Made by a program: the position numbers and the translations under genes. From assembly GCF_030384885.1 (NCBI RefSeq), contig NZ_CP128613.1: a stretch of DNA of 64,000 nt; one strand, written 5' to 3'. Below, piece after piece: positions 1,014-36,196 of the stretch. Source of the DNA: Escherichia coli (lineage in GTDB: Bacteria > Pseudomonadota > Gammaproteobacteria > Enterobacterales > Enterobacteriaceae). The stretch's first letter is position 1. Every line of letters begins with the position of its first letter. The notes below the pieces were generated by a model. The model did not search any database. It was not told where the DNA came from and saw only the letters and a program-made list of their open reading frames with translations.

Positions 1014-1871
1014 ATGATCAGGCAGAAGATTCTACAGCAGCTCCTGGAGTGGATTGAGTGCAATCTTGAGCACCCTATTTCAATCGAAGATATCGCACAG
1101 AAATCTGGCTACAGCAGACGCAACATCCAGCTTCTGTTCCGAAATTTCATGCATGTGCCTTTGGGAGAATACATTCGCAAACGAAGGCTTTGTCGTGCCG
1201 CCATTCTTGTCCGGCTCACCGCGAAATCTATGCTTGATATTGCACTCTCTTTGCATTTTGATTCACAGCAGTCATTCAGCCGCGAATTTAAAAAGTTATT
1301 CGGCTGCTCTCCCCGTGAATACCGCCACCGTGATTATTGGGATCTCGAAAATATCTTCCCTTCTTTTTTAATACGTCAACAGCAAAAGACGGAGTGTAGA
1401 TTAGTCAACTTTCCTGAGACACCTATTTTTGGCAATTCATTTAAATATGATATTGAAGTGTCGAATAAATCACCGGATGAAGAAGTCAAACTGCGACGTC
1501 ATCATTTAGCCAGATGTATGAAGAATTTTAAGACGGATATCTATTTCGTCTCCACGTTCGAACCGTCAACAAAATCGGTCGATTTGCTCACAGTTGAAAC
1601 TTTTGCCGGTACGGTATGCAAACAAACCGATTCAGAGATGTCGAAAGAGTGGACAATTAACCGAGGACTGTATGCCTCTTTCCGCTATGAAGGTGAGTGG
1701 GAGCACTACCCTGAATGGGCGCGAAACCTCTATCTGATGGAATTACCTGCCAGGGGGTTAGCCAGAGTGAACGGCAGTGATATTGAGCGATTTTATTACA
1801 ATGAAGATTTCGTAGAAAAGGATAGCAATGATGTTGTTTGCGAAATATTTATCCCTGTTCGTCCGGTTTAG
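1014..1871 (+). CDS. ykgA: AraC-family transcriptional regulator
   Basis: ORF 981-1871; internal ATG at 1014 preceded by GGAGA; N-terminal AraC-type HTH-like region; neighbourhood next to eaeH. Confidence 0.55.
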   Translation: MIRQKILQQLLEWIECNLEHPISIEDIAQKSGYSRRNIQLLFRNFMHVPLGEYIRKRRLCRAAILVRLTAKSMLDIALSLHFDSQQSFSREFKKLFGCSPREYRHRDYWDLENIFPSFLIRQQQKTECRLVNFPETPIFGNSFKYDIEVSNKSPDEEVKLRRHHLARCMKNFKTDIYFVSTFEPSTKSVDLLTVETFAGTVCKQTDSEMSKEWTINRGLYASFRYEGEWEHYPEWARNLYLMELPARGLARVNGSDIERFYYNEDFVEKDSNDVVCEIFIPVRPV

Positions 1872-1991
1872 TTATCGCTATGTCTAAATGAATTTATAAC
1901 AAGACTACTGTCAGGCAATTCAATAAATAATGGCGTTGAAGATGTCAACGCCATTATTGTTTATTAGAATGTTACTTTCATACTCTTAATA

Positions 1992-4900
1992 TTATTTCAT
2001 CGCCTCCTCGCCCGTTGCCGTATTGGCATCCACCGCGGTAATGGTCACCGTCACTGGCTTCATTTCGTACCCGCCATAGGTCAGGGCGTTAAATGTGAAC
2101 GTATAGACACCAGGCTTGCTGGTACTAAATGTACGCGTGATTTTTCCGCTCACGAAATGGTCATTTTTCGACGGCAGGAACTGATAATCCTTCTCCGTCA
2201 CCCCTTCCGGCGTCTGAATGTCGACCCACATATTCCCGCCAACGGGGTTATTTGCCGACATCAGGGTCACCTCCAGCTTCGCAGTCGATTTCCCATCCGC
2301 CACCAGAGATTGCACATCAGATGATGCGGCGAGCACCGCGTTTTTATCATCCGCCACGAAACTGGATTCAGCCGTTTTCGTTGATACCTGACCGTTGTCC
2401 TGACTCACTTGCGCCGTAAGTGTATATTTCGCTGCAACAGTCGTGGTGGCGGTGAAAATAGCCTGCCCTTGCTCATTCGTTGTCGCTGTGCCATTCGGTT
2501 CCAGGTTTAACGAAGCCGGGCTGGCGGTCAGCGTCACTTCGCTATCTTTCAACAAATTGTTATTGGCATCAGTCACCGTAACTTTATACGTCTGTTTGGC
2601 TTTGCCATCCGCCACTGCACGGTTGCCAATCACCTCAATACTGGAGATGGTCGCCGTAGTCTTATCCGCCACAAACGTAATGCTCTTCGCGTCTGAAGGC
2701 TGGTTATTTCCTGCTGAAGCCGTGATCTCATACGTTCCGGCAGTCACTGAAACCACCTGCAACTCTGCTTTCCCCTCATCGTTGGCTTTCACCCAGACAT
2801 TATCGCCAGTAAGCGGTTTGACACCCCGGGGCAGATTAAATGTCACCAGAGTTCCTGGAACAGGGTTACCGTTTTTATCCTCAACGGTCGCCGTCAGCGT
2901 AAAGGCATCTTTGCCGTTTGCCACTTTTTGAGCGGCAGTGTCAACCTGCAGGTTTGCCTGACCGGTGCTGGCGTCTGCGTTGAATTTCACCGTGACCGTC
3001 TTCTGAGCATTATTCACTGAGGCCGTGATACTGTGTTCCCCAGCAACGGTTGCTATCAACTCAATGTCCGCTTTACCTGCCGCATTGGTTGTTACTGTAT
3101 TCCCCGTCTTGCTAGTCACACCCTGCGGTAAAGTCAGCGTAACTTCTTGCCCCTGCAACGGGTTACCATAGCTGTCCACGACGGTCAGGGTTACCTGGTT
3201 AGCAGACTGTCCATTTGCCAGTTGGTTATTCACCTTCACCGCCATATCACTGATCACTGCCCGGGAAGCGTCGCCTGCAACATTCAGCACCAATGGCTGA
3301 GCAACGGCATTTTGGCCGTTCACGCGTGGCATGACAGACAACTGACCTGCAGCCGATCCCAGCGTTAAGGTCGACACGTAGACCCCATTACCTTTCTCTG
3401 TCCAGTTTCCTGCTGAAGGACGCTCACTCCCCGTGCTGGCGGCACCGCTAAACACTGGTGCATCTGGCTTCAGCCCGGTGACCGGGTTCCCGTACGCATC
3501 CTTCACGGTGAAGGTGAGTTCCGTCGTCGTTTTAACCGTTGGAGTCTTATTGTCCGCAACAAGCGTAGAGTTCGCTGATGACATCTCCCCGGCGATGACC
3601 GTCAACTGCGCGGCTTCGGTGGCTGCTGGCTGGCCGTTGAAGAGCGGCATGACACGAAGCTCGCCCGTCTTTCCGCCTGTGGTCAACGTAGCAACATAGG
3701 AACCGTCACCTTTTTCGGTCCAACTGGAAATAGTCGCCCCTTCAGAGGCGGTCCCCGTCAAACTTGCCGACAACGAAAGACCACTGATAGCGTTGCCATG
3801 CGCATCTTTCGCCACCAGCGTCACGGTTGTGCTTTCGCCTGCTTTTACGCGATCTGCGGCTACAGACACTGTCGACTGGCCTGAAGATAACGCATCAGCC
3901 ACCACGGTTACTTTTGCCGCGTTTGCTGCCGCGTCCTGCCCATTGAGCTTCGGCATAACCTCTAATTCACCCGCCGTAGAGCCGAGAGTAATTTGCGCAG
4001 TCCACGTCCCATCACCATTATTTGTCCAGCCCGATGCCGTAGAACCTACAGCAGCGGCACCCGCTAATGACGGCGCTTCCGGCGTGAGGCTGGTCACAGG
4101 GTTGTCATAGGCATCTTTTGCCGTCCAGATTGCCGTAACTGTACCGCCAACCACCGGTTTATCAGGATTCAGTGTGATGGACGAATGTGCTGCATCAAGC
4201 GGCCCGGCAACAAACTTCAGCGTTTGTTGTAACGTGCCCAGCTGATACTGCTCGCTGAAGGCACGCACAACAACGTTTCCGGCACGGGTCGAAGAAACCG
4301 TGGCGCTGTAAACCCCTGGTTTTATTTCCGAAATGGCACCAACGGTTACACCATTAGTGTCTTGCGGAACAAGTCGCAGGCGGCTGGCTTCTCCCGTCAC
4401 CGGATTACCCTCGGAGTCCACCGCTGTCAGTGTCAGCGTGTAGGCTTGCTGACCATCAGCAACCACATCACCTGACGGCTCGTTAGCGCTCAGGGTGGAG
4501 TTTGCCACATCCATCATCGTGGCCCGCAGTTCTGCAGTGACAGTTTTGCTCATGTCATCAACGCTAACAGTAATCGTTACCTCACCTGACTGCGTTCCGG
4601 TAGTAAAGACAGACTGATACACCCCTGCTTCAGTTTCGGTGAACTCACCCAGTGTGGGTTTTGCCTGTGATTTAGTGGCCTTCAGGGTACGAGTCACAAT
4701 ATTTCCAGCCGGTTTGAAGGTTAGTTCAGTCTTGATCTGATCTTTCATGCCCGTGACTGGCTGGCCCTCGGCGTCGCGCAGAGACAGCACCAGCGGCTTT
4801 TGCTCATTACCGTTAGCAAGCATTTGAATACTGCTCTGACCGTCAAGCGTTAACGCCGTACGATCGGCGCTCATACCAGCTCCGCTAATAACCACTTCTG

Positions 4901-6245
4901 TCTGCACACGTTTCGAGGCATTGCCTTTGTTATCGTAGGCAACTGCTGAAATCGCATAATAATTGTCTTTGCCTGGACGGTAAGCCGGGAGCGTTACTTG
5001 CCACTGACTACCCTGACCGGTAATTTTGCCACCTTCAGCCAGTAATGACGGCGCTTCCCACTGCACATTTTTCAGTCCGTGAGTTGCTTTGCTGACCACA
5101 AGCCCCAGGGAAACCGTCTGACCGCCCTTGCCTTCAATACGCTCAGGCAGAGCAATACGGATCACTTCAGATTTGCGGTACTCAAGAACGATGTTGTTAT
5201 TACGCTCAACCAGGTCATAGCGGCTGCCTGCCAGCATTCGACGCTCGCGAATGCTGTCTGTATCGAGTTGTTTTTGCAGAGGTTCGCCAATTCGGTAGTT
5301 AACTTCCAGGCCAAAGCGAGTGTCATTCTCACCACTCTTGCCCTGCTTATGCCCGGCGCTCAGTGTCAGAAGAGGCACTGGTGTATAGGTTACCTCGGCA
5401 GAAATAGCATGCGGGTCTTTCTGGCGTTTATCTTTACCAAACAGCCCGACTTCATCGCCATAATACTGCTCATACATCAGGCTTGCGCCAAGCTGCGGCC
5501 AGGCAGGTAAATAGCCCTCAGCACGAATATCCCAGCCATTCGCCGGGCGTTCCTGATAATCCTCAACATCCGGTGATTTTTTCCAGCCAGAAGCCCGGAT
5601 ATAACCATTGGCGCTCAGTTTCAAATAATCACGCCAGTATTCCGCACCAACACCAATGCGGGTATGACTACGGGATAAATCATGATCGATAAAAGTATTC
5701 ACCCCCGCCATCCAGTCATTTCCTGAAAAATGACGCCAGCCAAAACCAATATTTGACTGAGTACGATCGTCGGTACGATGTATTGCCCCCTGAGTGAACA
5801 ACATATTTGTCGGCGTGTCATAAATCGGATAAAGCATTTCCAGCGAAGAGTCCTTCAGCGAGAAATTTTTATCGACATTCAGTTTGACGCGCGCAGTACC
5901 ATATTTCCCGAGCCACTCCTGTATTTCCTGGTTAGCTTTAGCTGTGGCCATTCCGGTAATAAAGTTACGTGTCGCATCGCTATCTGGCTGACTGCTTAAA
6001 AATGTCCCGGCATTTGCGGCAAACGATGCGACATTTTTCTCCACATTATTATCAGCAGCTACCGTGGTATTTTCCATGCTCAACCGTGGCTGAACCGCAT
6101 GCTGCGCGCGTGCTGCCATTACTGGGGTAAAGGTGACAGCGAGTGGGAAAAGAACCTGAACAGAGATATTTGCCCACGCCACGCAGCGGGCCAGAACTGA
6201 ATAACGAAATCGTGGTTGTTTATGACCTGTTTTATAACGTGACAT
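1992..6245 (-). CDS. fdeC: intimin/invasin-like adhesin with beta-barrel anchor and tandem Big domains
   Basis: 1417-aa ORF; N-terminal beta-domain then repeated Ig-like modules (TVTLTA.D..GNP.. repeats); matches recollection of FdeC/EaeH. Confidence 0.85.
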   Translation of the reverse strand: MSRYKTGHKQPRFRYSVLARCVAWANISVQVLFPLAVTFTPVMAARAQHAVQPRLSMENTTVAADNNVEKNVASFAANAGTFLSSQPDSDATRNFITGMATAKANQEIQEWLGKYGTARVKLNVDKNFSLKDSSLEMLYPIYDTPTNMLFTQGAIHRTDDRTQSNIGFGWRHFSGNDWMAGVNTFIDHDLSRSHTRIGVGAEYWRDYLKLSANGYIRASGWKKSPDVEDYQERPANGWDIRAEGYLPAWPQLGASLMYEQYYGDEVGLFGKDKRQKDPHAISAEVTYTPVPLLTLSAGHKQGKSGENDTRFGLEVNYRIGEPLQKQLDTDSIRERRMLAGSRYDLVERNNNIVLEYRKSEVIRIALPERIEGKGGQTVSLGLVVSKATHGLKNVQWEAPSLLAEGGKITGQGSQWQVTLPAYRPGKDNYYAISAVAYDNKGNASKRVQTEVVISGAGMSADRTALTLDGQSSIQMLANGNEQKPLVLSLRDAEGQPVTGMKDQIKTELTFKPAGNIVTRTLKATKSQAKPTLGEFTETEAGVYQSVFTTGTQSGEVTITVSVDDMSKTVTAELRATMMDVANSTLSANEPSGDVVADGQQAYTLTLTAVDSEGNPVTGEASRLRLVPQDTNGVTVGAISEIKPGVYSATVSSTRAGNVVVRAFSEQYQLGTLQQTLKFVAGPLDAAHSSITLNPDKPVVGGTVTAIWTAKDAYDNPVTSLTPEAPSLAGAAAVGSTASGWTNNGDGTWTAQITLGSTAGELEVMPKLNGQDAAANAAKVTVVADALSSGQSTVSVAADRVKAGESTTVTLVAKDAHGNAISGLSLSASLTGTASEGATISSWTEKGDGSYVATLTTGGKTGELRVMPLFNGQPAATEAAQLTVIAGEMSSANSTLVADNKTPTVKTTTELTFTVKDAYGNPVTGLKPDAPVFSGAASTGSERPSAGNWTEKGNGVYVSTLTLGSAAGQLSVMPRVNGQNAVAQPLVLNVAGDASRAVISDMAVKVNNQLANGQSANQVTLTVVDSYGNPLQGQEVTLTLPQGVTSKTGNTVTTNAAGKADIELIATVAGEHSITASVNNAQKTVTVKFNADASTGQANLQVDTAAQKVANGKDAFTLTATVEDKNGNPVPGTLVTFNLPRGVKPLTGDNVWVKANDEGKAELQVVSVTAGTYEITASAGNNQPSDAKSITFVADKTTATISSIEVIGNRAVADGKAKQTYKVTVTDANNNLLKDSEVTLTASPASLNLEPNGTATTNEQGQAIFTATTTVAAKYTLTAQVSQDNGQVSTKTAESSFVADDKNAVLAASSDVQSLVADGKSTAKLEVTLMSANNPVGGNMWVDIQTPEGVTEKDYQFLPSKNDHFVSGKITRTFSTSKPGVYTFTFNALTYGGYEMKPVTVTITAVDANTATGEEAMK

Positions 6246-21076: not shown

Positions 21077-21406
21077 ATGAGCAATCTGAATCCATGCATG
21101 ACGTGTGGTGCCTGTTGTGCATTTTTCCGCGTCTCTTTTTACTGGGCCGAAGCCGACGATGCTGGCGGTACCATTCCCGCCAGGCTCACTGAACAAATAT
21201 CCCCTTTTCACCGATGCATGAGCGGTACCAATCAGAAAAACCCCCGATGTATTGCCCTTGCAGGAACACCGGGCAAAAATGCCTGCTGCACGATATATAA
21301 AAATCGATCGTCCACGTGCAGAGAATTCGCCATGTCTGGTGAGAACGGAGAAGTCAATGAGGCTTGCAATCGTGCAAGAGCTAAATACGGGCTGACACCG
21401 TTATAA
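21077..21406 (+). CDS. ykgJ: Cys-rich ferredoxin-like/zinc-binding protein
   Basis: 109-aa ORF with CxxCxxCC and further Cys clusters. Confidence 0.8.
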
Positions 21407-21654
21407 ATATGCAATAATTAATTGCACTGCCCCGCCAGCTATAATCGCGGGGCTTCGTTTTTCAGGGATAACAAAACCCGAAACTTCTTCCATCTGCCAG
21501 CAACAATGCCTCTTCCTCTATAGTGTTCTCCGGATCTACAGCATCCTGAAGTAGCGCGATGTACTCACTGGCTATCTGCATCAGAAAGTTAAAAACAATG
21601 TTTTTAACCTATAAAAATGGCGCTGTATTTGCGCCATTTTTATCATTCAATGCA

Positions 21655-22269
21655 TTATCTGTTTGAGCCTAAAGGGATCTCAGGGTCTGGCTCATGAGTA
21701 ATTCTGTTTCGTAAATCTCTGCGAATAATTTCAATGGACCAGAACCAGACTAAATGTCCAAAAATTTCAGAAACATTCTCATACCACGGGAGATCAAACA
21801 GAGGTGGCGTCAGTCCCATGAGAGGGAATGAAATCATATGAACAAAAAGTTGGGCTAAAGCACCTGCCAGTAAGCCCTGCCAGAGTTTAATTTTTGGAAA
21901 TACTTCAGCGACCACACAATAACCGACAGCAAACACTATCGAAAAGATAATGTGCGTAACACCAACCCAGTTAAAGACATGCCCGGCAAAGGTATAAACA
22001 GCCGCATTGGGATCTGTCAGCCCCAGCCAGTCTCGAAGAAAAATATACGGAGGATTGAGAAAATTACGGGAGCAATCAATTTGCCCAGCAGCCCTGATTA
22101 ATGATTCCGGGCCACACGCTGCATTAAACATATCCACCGGGCTACGTGGCGGCAATGGAACTTCAGCCCCCCACTTCACAAATGCGGAAACAACGCCAGC
22201 AATTAGCCCAATGAATGCAGCAAGACCATAACGTCTGCGGTTCGGTGGAGTTTGTTCAAATATATTCAT
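21655..22269 (-). CDS. yagU: inner-membrane protein, DUF1440 family
   Basis: 204-aa ORF, multiple hydrophobic segments; matches recollection of YagU. Confidence 0.85.
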
Positions 22270-22475
22270 ATTTACCCTGTTTGTTTCATTATGTTGTACA
22301 CCTCTTCAGGAGTATTCATAAAACAAGATAAATGTAAAGAACTGTATTGTTTTGTATAATGCAATGGTGACTAATCGCCAATTAATATAAGCACCATCAT
22401 TTCTCCATATTTTTATGTTAGAAGTGACAAGGAGAAATGTAATGTTTCTCTCAGAGAATATAAATCATTCCTTTT

Positions 22476-22500
22476 GCCCACCTTAATGGTGGGCTTTTTT
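22476..22500 (+). terminator. rho-independent terminator of a short transcript
   Basis: GCCCACC-TTAA-TGGTGGGC hairpin followed by TTTTTT; extended -10 TGTATAAT at 22353-22360 about 120 nt upstream. Confidence 0.5.
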
Positions 22501-22730
22501 ATGCAAAACCTGAACACCCTGTGGTATTCCCCTGGCATTATCACTTTCGCGATTAACCAACAGCCAGACCAGCAAACACGCCACTACAGGCACAGCAAAA
22601 TCCATCAGGCTTGCCACACCCCATGCGTGCGGCTCAAAGCCGCCCCGCCATGGCATATTAATCCGCTTACCATTTTCGAACAGCTGATTGGTTTAGTCCG
22701 GTGTTTCCCTGCTTGCACTTAAAAATGAGC

Positions 22731-22820
22731 GGATGGGAAACTCTCGAAATGGTTCGTCGATATGCTCACCTTTCAGTCAGGCATTTCACCGCGCACGCGA
22801 GCAAAATCAAAGGCACATGA
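22731..22820 (+). pseudogene. 3' remnant of a second P4-type integrase gene
   Basis: Encodes ..[14 protein letters not shown].. then stop, matching the C-terminus ([14 protein letters not shown]) of the intact integrase at 34943-36106; lies directly beside the left att copy. Confidence 0.6.
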
Positions 22821-22851
22821 GGAGAATGTGGTTGACTTAAAAACGAGGAAA

Positions 22852-22913
22852 CTTATTGATTTAAATGGTGCCGATAATAGGAGTCGAACCTACGACCTTC
22901 GCATTACGAATTA
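22852..22913. repeat. left 62-bp direct repeat (att copy; duplicates 3' part of tRNA-Thr plus 16 bp)
   Basis: Identical to 36105-36166 by direct comparison. Confidence 0.8.
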
Positions 22914-23351: not shown

Positions 23352-24695
23352 TCATTTCTTTGCCGCGCTTTTATTGCACTTCTTACAGCCTTCAATCAAT
23401 TTTTCAGTTATTATATAATAATAAGGAATGTAAATGTTTAACCCGCAAGTTTTAATCGAATCGAAAGCAAGAACTTTCACAATGGATTCTTCTCCATCTT
23501 TCTCCATTAGCAATATATCACTTAAAGGCAAATCATTAGGATTGTAAATCCTCACATCGCCAGGCTGTCTTTCATAGGCTTCGATGTCATCACCTGGTTG
23601 GCCATAGGCTAAATGAGTGGCTTTAATCCAGTTTATTGGTTCAGCATTTTGACACCAGGAGATTATTTTTTCTAATTTTTCAGGTGTGTAAGCTTTTACA
23701 TAATCTCCATGTTTTTCACATCTACCTAGTTCTGAAAAATGGCCCAGGGTGTATTCATAAGAATAATCACCAGCAGTCAATGGTAGTCTAAAGTATTGCT
23801 GAGGCAATGCCTTCTGGACTTTGGTTTTACTCAGCAAATTAAAGGTGATATCATAAAGTTGATATAGACAAACACCCTCTCGATCTGGATATCCATAAGG
23901 CTTGATGTCAGAAAGCATCTCAATATCAGAATTATAAACACTTGCATAATCATCACTTCCAAACATGAAAAAACCTTTTGATAGAATGAATATTGCATTA
24001 GGAAGAACGTTTTTTTCAAAATTCTGCGAGTGAGTTTTTATTTCTTGTACTATGTCCATCCAATCCATATCAGTATCATAGGCGAAGATAATTCCAAAAC
24101 CATTAGTCTGAATTCTCTCCTCTGAATGTATAAATATGTTCTGATTTATACCATGTTTCTTTAGTTTTTTGAATGAGCGGATATTTTCGAAAGCACTTTT
24201 CAGTTCTTTTTTTGTTAGTTTTGACTTAACCTGAATCACACCATAGCAGTACTCCACAGGTAAAACCTCAAAAATTTCCTGTCGCTGCATAAGCGAAAAT
24301 GAATTAAAAGCATCATAAAAAAGAATGTCGATTTCATTACTGAGATGTCCTGAGGTTGACGCTACACGGACACTTGATTTTGAGATGGCATAGCTTTGCG
24401 GTAAGAGTTTATTTTCATTGAAAAAGCATCTTAAGAGTTCCTCTCTGACAGTACCAACATCTCTTGGATGCTTAATATCTTTCGATATTTCAAAATCTTG
24501 AAGCATTTTCCTCTGTAAGTGAATGAACTCCCTTTCAAGACCATAAAATTCTTTATCTTTAGATCTCAGTTTGCTTGCACGAGAAACTTGATCGGATATC
24601 CATTCCTTTGTGCGAGACTCTCTCTCAGCAAAATCATCACGTTGTTTTTTTACAGCACCGGTCAAGCGTTTTCTTGTGTTTTCATTATCGGACAT
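23352..24695 (-). CDS. hypothetical protein, low GC; possible PD-(D/E)xK / Mrr-like nuclease fold
   Basis: 447-aa ORF; motif ..SNEIDILFYD..(about 25 aa)..YGVIQVKSKL reminiscent of a D...(E/Q)xK nuclease core; AT-rich relative to neighbours; no confident family assignment. Confidence 0.55.
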   Translation of the reverse strand: MSDNENTRKRLTGAVKKQRDDFAERESRTKEWISDQVSRASKLRSKDKEFYGLEREFIHLQRKMLQDFEISKDIKHPRDVGTVREELLRCFFNENKLLPQSYAISKSSVRVASTSGHLSNEIDILFYDAFNSFSLMQRQEIFEVLPVEYCYGVIQVKSKLTKKELKSAFENIRSFKKLKKHGINQNIFIHSEERIQTNGFGIIFAYDTDMDWMDIVQEIKTHSQNFEKNVLPNAIFILSKGFFMFGSDDYASVYNSDIEMLSDIKPYGYPDREGVCLYQLYDITFNLLSKTKVQKALPQQYFRLPLTAGDYSYEYTLGHFSELGRCEKHGDYVKAYTPEKLEKIISWCQNAEPINWIKATHLAYGQPGDDIEAYERQPGDVRIYNPNDLPLSDILLMEKDGEESIVKVLAFDSIKTCGLNIYIPYYYIITEKLIEGCKKCNKSAAKK

Positions 24696-25214: not shown

Positions 25215-25814
25215 TCATTTATCTCCGACCGGAAACTTCTTATACAGTGTCGATACACCAACATCATAGATGATCTCCACCTTCTGGCGAGGAACGCCTG
25301 ATGCAATTAATCGCCCGGCCTGCGCCCTTTGTTCTGGTGTAAGTTTGGGACGACGTCCACCAATTCGTCCCTGTGCGCGAGCAACTTCCAGTCCAGCTTT
25401 TGTTCGTTCAACAATCAGTTCTCGTTCCATTTCAGCCAGGGCACCCATCACATGAAAGAAAAAACGCCCCATCGGTGTGCTGGTATCAATAGCATCCGTC
25501 AGGCTGCGAAAATTAACGCCACGTTCGCGCAACTCCTCAACCAGAATGACCAGATGGACAAGCGTGCCGGGACCGGGTTTATTCAGCGCTTCAATCAGGC
25601 GATCGCGCTGGTCAAAGCAGTCATCTCCCACCACATAAGCTGTGATGGACGGGCGGAAAGTGACTTTTCCCAGATCTTCGGTATAGGGCTTGTCGCGGTT
25701 CGGGTATTCATGTGTTTCCACACGGCGACCGGTTCCCGCACTTTCTTCTTCAACCTTAAACGGCACACCTCGAAATGACGCATCCTGAAGCCTGTCTTTC
25801 CACGTCATATACAC
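25215..25814 (-). pseudogene. chimeric ORF: C-terminal half of a Pin/Gin/Hin-family serine DNA invertase fused to a Mu-N-like (DNA circularisation protein) N-terminus
   Basis: C-terminal about 110 aa (VEELRERG..FRSLTD.IDTSTPMGRFFFHVMGALAEMERELIVERT..GGRRPKLT..) matches invertase C-terminus and HTH; catalytic Ser-containing N-terminus missing; first about 85 aa (WKDRLQDASFRGVPF..GRRVETHEYPNRD..EDLG) resembles phage DNA_circ_N proteins. Confidence 0.6.
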
Positions 25815-32914: not shown

Positions 32915-33604
32915 TTAATCCAGTTTTGCAATATTTTGCTGTGAAAATGTCGCCTTTTGTTTTGAACGTGTTCTCGTTAGAAGCAATAAAGCTTCGCTAT
33001 CAAGCTGTAGAAAAATGTGCTTCATTGCAACCCAGCGTTCAGTGAATGTCTCAGACCAGTTTTTTGATGTCACTCCCACCAGTGACGCCAGTTCCTGGTA
33101 TTCATAAGCCTCACGCCCTGCCAGTTCGCTCTTCACATCCTGTGCCGCCAGCCAGATCAACTTCTTCAGGCGTTCCAGTGTCTTACCTGCAATTTTTCTG
33201 GTACCCAACAGAGTCTTAAACTCGCTCCATGCCCACTGCGTTATGGCAACCTGATGCTCCCAGCGAATATTTTCACTGTAACTCCACAGCAACCATGCTT
33301 TCTGATGCTCATCGAGAGACAGAACAGCGCGGCGCCATGAAGAGGTTGAAAACTCGACCGGACTGATCAGGGCGACAGATGAACCTTTTGCGTACGACTG
33401 TTTACCGGAAATCGGCAGATTATCCAGCATAATAATCTTGCCAGTTACCTCATCCAGAATGCGTCGCTTCTTTCGTTTGTATGTACCAGTATCAAATTGT
33501 GCATGCTCCAGCCAGGCTTCAAGCTGGCCTTTCGTTGCTCCGCTCAAGTCAGCGGTAGCCACCATGAGTTGCTCGCGGACATATTGTAAATATTGGGTAT
33601 TCAT
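32915..33604 (-). CDS. late-gene antiterminator Q-like protein
   Basis: 229-aa ORF directly upstream of the lysis cassette and downstream of rusA; position-based, not lambda-Q-like in sequence. Confidence 0.55.
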   Translation of the reverse strand: MNTQYLQYVREQLMVATADLSGATKGQLEAWLEHAQFDTGTYKRKKRRILDEVTGKIIMLDNLPISGKQSYAKGSSVALISPVEFSTSSWRRAVLSLDEHQKAWLLWSYSENIRWEHQVAITQWAWSEFKTLLGTRKIAGKTLERLKKLIWLAAQDVKSELAGREAYEYQELASLVGVTSKNWSETFTERWVAMKHIFLQLDSEALLLLTRTRSKQKATFSQQNIAKLD

Positions 33605-34942: not shown

Positions 34943-36106
34943 ATGTCACTCTTCCGCAGAAGTGAAATATGGTACGCCAGTTTCACATTGCCGAACGGTA
35001 AAAGATTTAAACAGTCTCTTGGAACAAAGGACAAAAGGCAGGCGACAGAGCTCCATGACAAGCTAAAGGCTGAAGCATGGCGGGTCAGCAAACTTGGTGA
35101 AATACCTGATATGACGTTTGAGGAAGCGTGTGTCAGGTGGCTCGAAGAGAAAGCACATAAGAAATCACTGGACGATGACAAAAGCCGGATCGGATTCTGG
35201 CTTCAACATTTCGCAGGGATGCAACTAAGAGACATCACTGAATCAAAAATTTATTCAGCGATGCAGAAAATGACAAACCGGCGTCATGAGGAAAACTGGA
35301 AACTCAGGGCAGAAGCATGCAGAAAAAAAGGGAAACCTGTTCCAGAATACACGCCAAAACCAGCGTCCGTTGCAACGAAGGCTACGCATCTTTCATTTAT
35401 AAAGGCCCTGCTAAGAGCCGCAGAGCGTGAATGGAAAATGCTGGATAAGGCACCAATTATTAAAGTGCCTCAACCGAAGAATAAACGTATCCGCTGGCTG
35501 GAGCCTCATGAAGCACAAAGGCTGATTGATGAATGTCCGGAGCCATTAAAGTCTGTTGTTGAATTTGCACTGGCAACAGGCTTAAGACGCTCGAACATCA
35601 TCAACCTTGAATGGCAACAAATAGACATGCAGCGCCGGGTGGCATGGATAAACCCGGAAGAGAGTAAATCAAACCGCGCAATTGGCGTTGCGCTGAATGA
35701 TACTGCATGTCGCGTATTGAAAAAACAAATCGGGAATCATCACCGTTGGGTATTTGTATACAAGGAAAGCTGTACCAAACCAGACGGAACGAAAGCGCCA
35801 ACGGTCAGGAAGATGCGGTATGACGCAAACACAGCCTGGAAAGCGGCGCTGAGACGAGCAGGTATTGATGATTTCAGATTTCACGACTTGAGACACACCT
35901 GGGCAAGTTGGCTGGTTCAAGCCGGAGTCCCGTTGTCAGTGTTACAGGAAATGGGAGGCTGGGAGTCTATCGAAATGGTTCGTCGATATGCTCACCTCGC
36001 ACCTAATCACCTTACCGAACATGCACGGCAAATAGACTCGATCCTGAACCCATCGGTCCCAAATTTGTCCCAGTCAAAAAATAAGGAAGGTACTAATGAT
36101 GTGTAA
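34943..36106 (+). CDS. int: tyrosine integrase (P4/DLP12 IntD-like)
   Basis: 387-aa ORF with HDLRHT...YAHL catalytic tail, ending 15 bp before the tRNA 3' end. Confidence 0.9.
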
Positions 36107-36166
36107 CTTATTGATTTAAATGGTGCCGATAATAGGAGTCGAACCTACGACCTTCGCATTACGAAT
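36105..36166. repeat. right 62-bp direct repeat (att copy overlapping tRNA-Thr 3' end)
   Basis: Identical to 22852-22913. Confidence 0.8.
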
Positions 36167-36196
36167 GCGCTGCTCTACCAACTGAGCTATATCGGC
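36121..36196 (-). tRNA. thrW: tRNA-Thr (anticodon CGU)
   Basis: Reverse complement reads GCCGATATAGCTCAGTTGGTAGAGCAGCGCATTCGTAATGCGAAGGTCGTAGGTTCGACTCCTATTATCGGCACCA; cloverleaf-compatible, CCA end. Confidence 0.9.

Follow-up and report, generated by a model that had tools for sequence, protein, structure and literature searches.

Does the spacer beside yagU in Escherichia coli encode a small RNA (sRNA), a small protein, an attenuator or nothing but a terminator? We addressed this question in a stretch of 64,000 nt of an E. coli chromosome (contig NZ_CP128613.1, assembly GCF_030384885.1), hereafter the window, whose positions and strands are used throughout. Next to the acid-resistance gene yagU (21655–22269, − strand), a compact + strand unit runs from a −10-like hexamer at 22355–22360 to an intrinsic terminator at 22476–22500. 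The earlier note on this DNA, made from the sequence alone, had proposed an sRNA or a leader-peptide transcript. Our best explanation, to which we give a probability of roughly 0.45, is a base-pairing RNA of prophage origin that is non-coding, low in abundance and associated with Hfq, acting either as a regulator or as a sponge or target. The unit belongs to the remains of an ancient lambdoid prophage at the thrW attachment site, which would also have brought in yagU as a cargo gene ("moron"). Its transcript, of about 140 nt, would be made from the strand opposite yagU, in the interval from the yagU promoter to what is left of a phage b-region gene, and would end at the terminator.

The terminator claimed by the earlier note at 22476–22500 (+) was borne out. 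It consists of the hairpin GCCCACC-TTAAT-GGTGGGC followed by TTTTTTAT, with a 7-bp stem (22476–22482 paired with 22488–22494) containing six G–C pairs, a 5-nt loop and a T6 tail (22495–22500). The predicted folding energy is −15.2 kcal/mol (z −4.3), and none of 200 shuffled sequences was as stable. A strict scan of the 64-kb window recognized four distinct + strand terminators, and this one was among the strongest. In the − strand reading, AAAAGGAATG comes after the hairpin, and the terminator is therefore unidirectional.

A transcript ending at this terminator was recovered on Hfq from the orthologous locus of enteropathogenic E. coli (EPEC) E2348/69. The Hfq RIL-seq data of this strain (PMC8550237 supplement, tables S3, S5, S7) list an RNA named "yagU.E2348C_0240.IGR", located on the strand opposite yagU and with a longest U tract of 6. 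We transferred its coordinates to the window by exact or near-exact match to the E2348/69 sequence. Positions 273198–273220 correspond exactly to 22478–22500, 273198–273234 to 22464–22500, and 273231–273336 to 22362/3–22467. The fragments thus delimit an Hfq-associated RNA of at least 139 nt (22362–22500, +), with its true 5′ end at or upstream of 22362. The 3′ end of the RNA2 fragments falls exactly on 22500, the last T of the tail. Hfq association in vivo is established for the E2348/69 ortholog, and the present strain presumably makes the same RNA. The sRNA proposal of the earlier note is thereby supported, with Hfq-bound fragments reaching from about 2 nt after its −10 hexamer to the end of the tail.

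The RIL-seq chimeras also indicate partners. Under the activating condition, all 50 chimeric fragments carried the RNA in the RNA2 position, which is the sRNA-like one; the partners were the sRNA SroC (36 fragments, p 4.7e-9) and escC (14 fragments, p 1.6e-19), an mRNA of the enterocyte effacement locus (LEE) (PMC8550237). Under the non-activating condition, 12 fragments carried it as RNA1, joined to a prophage sRNA candidate, E2348C_1409.E2348C_1408.IGR (PMC8550237). The site assigned to this prophage sRNA is GGCAAGG, flanked by UGUUAGAAGU and AGAAAUGUAA (PMC8550237, table S7), and it overlaps an AAGGAG motif at 22429–22434 of the window.

The predicted fold resembles the build of Hfq-dependent sRNAs. 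The segment 22367–22502 folds with −33.7 kcal/mol (z −3.9), and a consensus fold was calculated from five sequences, only one of them a diverged homolog. A first hairpin (22397–22427, +), located in the portion common to K-12-type strains, was found in the minimum free energy (MFE), centroid and consensus folds. A second one (22431–22451, +), in which GGAGAAAU pairs with GUUUCUCU over 8 bp, was found in the consensus fold. These two 5′ hairpins would be followed by an unpaired A/U-rich stretch (22452–22475, +; MFE and consensus folds) ending in CCUUUU, by the GC-rich terminator hairpin and by the U6 tail. The terminator with its tail UUUUUUAU is preceded by the U-rich single-stranded CAUUCCUUUU, as is typical of the class. 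The unpaired stretch is the putative Hfq-binding and seed region, and pairing with partners would probably proceed through 22448–22475.

The phage origin of the unit is seen by comparison with strain PEC41, which carries a lambdoid prophage of the cytolethal distending toxin type I (CDT-I). Over 408 nt, positions 22276–22682 are collinear with this prophage and 80% identical to it. Upstream of cdtA, PEC41 also has about 32 nt from the 5′ end of yagU (22215–22246), and the prophage order is tail-fibre genes, a 96-aa gene, the terminator, the spacer and cdtABC. The toxin operon there occupies the slot of yagU, which implies that yagU came as phage cargo and that the promoter of cdtA may be of the yagU type. 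The PEC41 spacer upstream of cdtA (NZ_CM168023, 4740–5070) shares homology with that of the yagU promoter. In the paralog, the stem and T-tract of the terminator have been kept without change and two of the five loop bases differ, which is the pattern that would be expected of a functional hairpin.

Downstream of the terminator, the phage remnant continues. A 57-aa open reading frame (ORF) on the − strand (22483–22656) is the truncated C-terminal remnant of a 96/97-aa lambdoid b-region membrane protein, and the 97-aa protein also follows the tail-fibre genes of phage 21, of lambda-like phages and of the BL21 Rac prophage. Next come the C-terminal fragment of a lambdoid-type tyrosine integrase (22701–22820, +; a pseudogene), whose C-terminus resembles that of an intact integrase at 34943–36106, and a 62-nt att repeat (22850–22911, −) that includes the 3′ 46 nt of thrW. 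With PEC41 collinearity, an integrase fragment and a flanking thrW 3′ repeat all present, the region from yagU through the integrase fragment is, on sequence grounds, one ancient lambdoid remnant at thrW, of which the studied unit is an original part.

Several further matches were followed for the terminator and its surroundings. Exact 27/29-mer scans for its origin in other taxa gave one match in Methylophaga, after an unrelated gene and with dissimilar flanks. There, the marine gammaproteobacterium Methylophaga sp. 41_12_T18 has an exact 28-nt copy of the terminator core (2287–2314) after that gene, which we take to be a convergence of a generic terminator sequence. Their one match to a "viral" contig turned out to be simply E. 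coli chromosome, and a search of a phage collection with 22425–22549 gave no match. On the − strand, GCCCACCA could be read as a tRNA 3′ end; this was dropped by eye, and ARAGORN and Rfam find nothing there.

To place the unit within the species, we turned to complete E. coli genomes, 5426 in all. About 4840 of them contain the initial 160 nt beyond yagU (22270–22430), and 1299 (about 24%) contain the sequence from 22431 onward. The carriers include the B2 strains CFT073, Nissle 1917, ST131 and E2348/69, as well as CE10 and IAI39. Conservation in other E. coli, a check proposed by the earlier note, was evident: 1279 of the 1299 carriers share, at 100% identity, the 86 nt of 22431–22516, which comprise the ribosome-binding site (RBS), the short ORF, the terminator and a further 16 bases. 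Taken separately, 22436–22475 (most of the ORF) is identical in 1289/1296 genomes and the terminator part in 1288/1299. For the next 86 nt after 22516, only one genome reached ≥99% identity. In total, there were 1363 matching places in the 1299 genomes. The extra places (~64 genomes) lie within the terminator end, none of them within 20 kb of yagU, and the ORF part alone gave one extra place. PEC41 is an example of a genome with a paralog only: its CDT-I prophage copy has 91.9% identity at the terminator end, and it has no yagU-linked copy.

The pao-carrying strains examined, E. coli C and S21, are without the segment and have a divergent paoABC operon after yagU. Their homology with the window stops at 22431–22435, inside the AAGGAG motif. 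In these strains, paoABC follows after ~260 unrelated nt, and the first ~65 nt of the RNA region would fall upstream of paoA. Such a distribution, with the downstream segment in 1299/5426 genomes only, could suggest a chimera, in which loss of paoABCD–yagP fused the core paoA promoter to an unrelated island terminator and gave rise to an accidental transcript. This origin is ruled out by the PEC41 prophage, which is collinear from the yagU 5′ end via spacer, ORF and terminator into the 96-aa gene, across the supposed joint. Because there is no break at 22431 in PEC41, the arrangement in the window is the uninterrupted one, and the breakpoint lies in the K-12-type arrangement.

The promoter of the unit could be assigned only as a candidate. 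The earlier note had read TGTATAAT at 22353–22360 as an extended −10. The TATAAT hexamer is present at 22355–22360 (+), but the TG abuts it, at −14/−13, and is not at −15/−14 as in TGnTATAAT. The best −35 matches the consensus at 3/6 positions (ATGTAA), and a consensus scan makes no promoter call there. In a 206-nt segment of matching, AT-rich composition, ~0.39 perfect TATAAT hexamers per strand would be expected, and the occurrence of this one is therefore no more than chance. It is also a minority allele. The stretch 22330–22400 is 100% identical in 19/4893 genomes and 80–90% identical in 4767/4893; most strains, including B2, F and C-type ones, have TATAAC and the phage paralog has CATAAG. 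The TATAAT allele occurs also in the pao-positive strain S21, and is thus independent of the downstream segment. Just after TATAA (22360–22364), four bases are locally hypervariable and differ between all haplotype groups (TGCA here, CCAC in B2/F strains, CAAG in E. coli C, and in the phage paralog GAAG), with both sides conserved.

In E2348/69, which has TATAAC, RNA fragments already cover the position 2–3 nt after the hexamer, so that the hexamer cannot be the promoter in that strain. As a general promoter it is doubtful; in the strain studied here, its perfect form may create an additional start near 22367 or reinforce one there. An alternative −10-like hexamer, TATTGT (22345–22350, +), has no good −35 and is shared unchanged by every allele and by the phage paralog. 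With it, the start would fall at ~22356–22358, in agreement with the RIL-seq 5′ boundary at 22362/3. The candidate + strand promoter stands back-to-back with the divergent yagU promoter (22301–22338, −), which has a −35 TTTACA at 22338–22333, a −10 AATACT at 22316–22311 and a start at ~22301. The main Cappable-seq start of yagU in K-12 is 302183(+), 32 nt upstream of the yagU ATG; for the K-12 yagU coordinate we assume a position that agrees with that of the neighbouring sRNA EcsR2 in its published account.

The 14-codon ORF described in the earlier note, predicted to encode MFLSENINHSFCPP, is present (22442–22486, +; ATG at 22442, TAA at 22484–22486). The Shine-Dalgarno-like AAGGAG lies at 22429–22434 (+), the 5′ arm of the terminator stem is made up of the CPP codons, and the loop contains the stop codon. 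It is not the only reading frame, as had been stated: an in-frame ATG at 22415 would give 23 aa, an ATG-TAA start-stop lies at 22437–22442, and the − strand 57-aa ORF overlaps the terminator. The expectation of no annotated gene was wrong in part, in view of the 57-aa ORF, which the Prokaryotic Genome Annotation Pipeline (PGAP) annotates as hypothetical protein WP_010360345.1 in strain 2013C-4282, 100% identical to the window over 22270–22860. The 23-aa form has never been annotated, and an exact look-up in a collection of 15 billion proteins gave nothing.

The short ORF raises two alternatives to a non-coding RNA. In one, the transcript would be an mRNA for MFLSENINHSFCPP, with its RBS regulated by the prophage sRNA, or a dual-function RNA. 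The AAGGAG is placed 7 nt upstream of the ATG, 22436–22475 is nearly invariant among the carriers, and the EPEC RNA is also target-like (RNA1), with an assigned site overlapping the Shine-Dalgarno motif. However, this motif and the AUG are predicted to be sequestered in the 8-bp second hairpin. In the PEC41 paralog the motif has decayed to AAAGAG, three of the 14 residues are changed against one synonymous change, and the loop stop codon is lost, extending the frame to 32 codons. A natural 24-nt deletion in Z1323HEC0477 (equivalent to 22443–22466) removes the ORF start and the first eight codons, leaving the terminator intact, and E2348/69 has F2S in the ORF and an A-to-G change beside the RBS. 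With a peptide that has no hydrophobic or otherwise recognizable character, and a 23-aa form absent from the protein collection, we consider a small-protein gene improbable. In the other alternative, a leader-peptide attenuator, translation up to the stop codon in the loop would block the terminator and permit downstream read-through. The geometry fits, with the last three codons forming the 5′ arm, and the ORF ends in a C-terminal Pro-Pro-stop, a known slow-termination context. Yet there is no co-oriented downstream gene to be controlled, the − strand remnant, the integrase fragment and the att site being found instead, and the next gene of the PEC41 paralog is also on the opposite strand. 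No antiterminator was predicted, as the MFE, centroid and consensus folds all retain the terminator and contain no competing helix. The sole upstream similarity to the terminator arm, ATGGTGAC at 22364–22371, is absent from the common allele. The ORF has no repeated or regulatory codon run, and neither the ORF nor its stop-in-loop geometry is conserved in the paralog. The leader-peptide part of the original proposal is thereby essentially excluded.

Several observations weigh against a base-pairing RNA. All transcript evidence comes from another strain, E2348/69, where the RNA is scarce, with 62 chimeric fragments compared to thousands for established sRNAs. The authors of the RIL-seq study asked of an sRNA that more than half of its fragments be RNA2, that the U tract be ≥4, that there be ≥3 partners, and that >67% of the partners be coding sequences (CDS) or 5′ untranslated regions (5′UTR) (PMC8550237). 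Here, 50/62 fragments were RNA2, the U tract was 6 and there were three partners, but only one of the three was a CDS, and for this reason the RNA was left out of the authors' 13 predicted sRNAs (PMC8550237). Hfq binds many terminator tails, so that association alone is no proof of function. The best escC duplex from a windowed search (22448–22471, beside the chimera coordinate) reached −18.1 kcal/mol, a marginal gain over shuffles, which gave −14.9 ± 2.4 and matched it in 10% of cases; the SroC duplex was no better than shuffles, and whole-length RNAduplex runs against SroC and escC were uninformative. None of 27 predicted pairs shows a compensatory change, with one diverged homolog in the comparison, and only the terminator therefore has comparative support. 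The Rfam search suggested by the earlier note found no family at gathering score over the RNA. The sub-threshold overlaps (JA04, 22.8 bits vs 81; MicA, 22.1 vs 41; RyhB, 19.6 vs 55; Hrs1, 20.4 vs 56.4; E 0.9–3.6) are generic terminator resemblances. The hexamer at 22355–22360 is a rare allele, and a good −35 is missing for both −10 candidates. Finally, the 86-nt invariance may reflect unusually diverged flanks and not selection. We do not take it as proof of selection, because prophage paralogs of the right flank can drive gene conversion, the left flank is ~10% polymorphic, and the genome set is clonal.

In a rival explanation, the phage terminator insulates. It would stop wrong-way transcription from the yagU/cdt promoter region, antisense to the neighbouring phage late or b-region genes, and the RNA would be a by-product bound by Hfq through its U-tail. 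The terminator indeed lies between the cargo promoter region and an opposite-strand phage gene, both in the chromosome and in the PEC41 prophage. The weak and variable promoter signals, the low RIL-seq counts, the failure of the RNA to be called an sRNA, and the lack of covariation outside the terminator all agree with such a role. It explains less well that three distinct Hfq-mediated partners were statistically significant, with exclusively RNA2 positions in one condition, and that the region upstream of the hairpin, single-stranded stretch included, is as invariant as the hairpin itself. Moreover, the genes once protected are now pseudogenes, and the element is still intact in ~1280 genomes. 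We regard an insulator with a by-product RNA as possible, and nearly as likely as a base-pairing RNA. A bolder version, which we treat as a long shot, would make it a prophage-born dual-function Hfq RNA, base-pairing and encoding the 14-aa peptide, fixed in its carriers (B2 strains included) but missing from the pao-carrying K-12/C-type strains examined, and linking the SroC/GcvB sponge network and, in attaching-effacing strains, the LEE type III secretion gene escC to the acid-induced yagU locus, with TATAAT as a natural up-promoter variant.

Among known systems, the closest are prophage-encoded Hfq-binding sRNAs, such as EcOnc/AgvB/AsxR of enterohaemorrhagic E. coli, DicF and IpeX. Like these, the yagU-side RNA is located in a lambdoid prophage (here a remnant) beside cargo genes, has a size in the range of ~80–170 nt, ends in a stem-loop with a poly-U tail, and is patchily distributed across E. 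coli lineages. PasA-D are prophage-encoded Hfq-binding sRNAs of EPEC (Pearl Mizrahi et al. 2021, PMC8550237; bioRxiv 10.64898/2026.05.13.724894), and the yagU-side RNA was recovered on Hfq in the same RIL-seq experiment. Unlike PasA, PasC, PasD1 and PasD2, with 1237–4983 fragments in the activating condition, it had 62 fragments and three partners. It is also unnamed, being listed apart from the Pas RNAs as an intergenic RNA, and the remnant in which it lies is fully decayed and was counted by the authors as core genome (PMC8550237).

The short ORF and the terminator invite two more comparisons. Leader-peptide attenuators of the trpL, pheL, hisL and pyrL type likewise have a short ORF with an RBS and an end overlapping an intrinsic terminator, but they come with a downstream operon, an antiterminator alternative and regulatory codons, all of which are missing here, and the present ORF is not conserved in the homolog. 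Dual-function sRNAs are exemplified by SgrS/SgrT, Spot 42/SpfP and AzuCR. The studied RNA shares with them the Hfq association and a short ORF with an RBS; it differs in having only 14 codons, an RBS predicted to be structured, and a putative translation. In the moron concept of Hendrix and Juhala, a cargo gene, equipped with a promoter and a factor-independent terminator of its own, sits between lambdoid phage genes. In agreement with this, yagU here and cdtABC in PEC41 share the slot downstream of the 96/97-aa gene and the upstream spacer. The studied terminator, however, points away from the cargo gene, and is not the moron's own.

On the other side of yagU lies another small RNA. The local gene order begins with ecpE and ykgJ (21077–21406, +), followed by EcsR2/IS009 (21449–21649, −), for which we obtained a full-length match to Rfam RF02111 (199.6 bits, E 1.4e-49). 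EcsR2 is the published sRNA of the yagU–ykgJ spacer (Raghavan et al. 2015, PMC4350180), with homologs in all 66 RefSeq E. coli genomes examined (PMC4350180). It was the only sRNA found in the literature on yagU and sRNAs. EcsR2, the immediate neighbour across yagU, resembles the studied RNA in also overlapping a phage remnant. The two differ in sequence, strand and distribution, the studied RNA being found in ~24% of the complete genomes, and the studied RNA is not EcsR2. Together, they show that yagU is embedded in phage debris yielding small transcripts. In strain CH4811, a 39-aa ORF within EcsR2 (21462–21581, −) carries the annotation of a tail fiber assembly protein. Between the yagU end and EcsR2, at 21618–21636, there is a symmetrical hairpin, TGGCGC-N7-GCGCCA, flanked by an A-run and a T-run and scoring as a terminator on both strands.

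Beyond the ancient remnant, a younger prophage occupies the thrW site. The att repeat at 22850–22911 is identical to 36105–36166, the two forming 62-nt perfect direct repeats composed of the thrW 3′ 46 nt plus 16 nt. The only intact tRNA-Thr(CGU) gene, thrW, was found by ARAGORN at 36121–36196, adjoining proA and proB. Between the repeats lies a 13-kb degraded lambdoid prophage, with the integrase at 34943–36106, Q at 32915–33604, Rz, both terminase subunits (small and large) and a truncated portal gene. This 13-kb insert is missing from strain 2013C-4282, which is otherwise identical. In the younger remnant, the cargo gene closest to the attR end (23352–24695, −) encodes a 447-aa protein with a DUF6602 domain (E 4.6e-23). 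A 199-aa ORF (25215–25814, −) joins a phage DNA-circularisation N-terminal domain (residues 9–87) to a resolvase/invertase C-terminal half and a helix-turn-helix, and looks like a fusion from an internal deletion in the prophage.

So far, the RNA is only an unnamed row of a supplementary table, with no Rfam family and with a 23-aa frame that was never annotated. Its interest is modest, and lies in its absence from the K-12/C-type strains examined, its invariance in the carriers and what it illustrates of the way in which phage debris can give rise to sRNAs. Should the transcript be noise only, the annotation would still be corrected, the 57-aa "hypothetical protein" being a gene remnant, and the breakpoint between K-12 and B2 strains at this locus would be explained. 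CDT-I prophages, too, have the yagU spacer, upstream of their cdtABC toxin operon. If functional, the RNA would give the carrier lineages, among them B2 strains such as CFT073, Nissle 1917, ST131 and E2348/69, an uncharacterised Hfq-dependent RNA, as a lineage-specific layer of post-transcriptional control that is invisible to work on K-12. With phage debris on both sides of yagU, EcsR2 on one and the studied RNA on the other, the locus would clearly illustrate how promoter-terminator modules left over from decayed prophages turn into small RNA genes.

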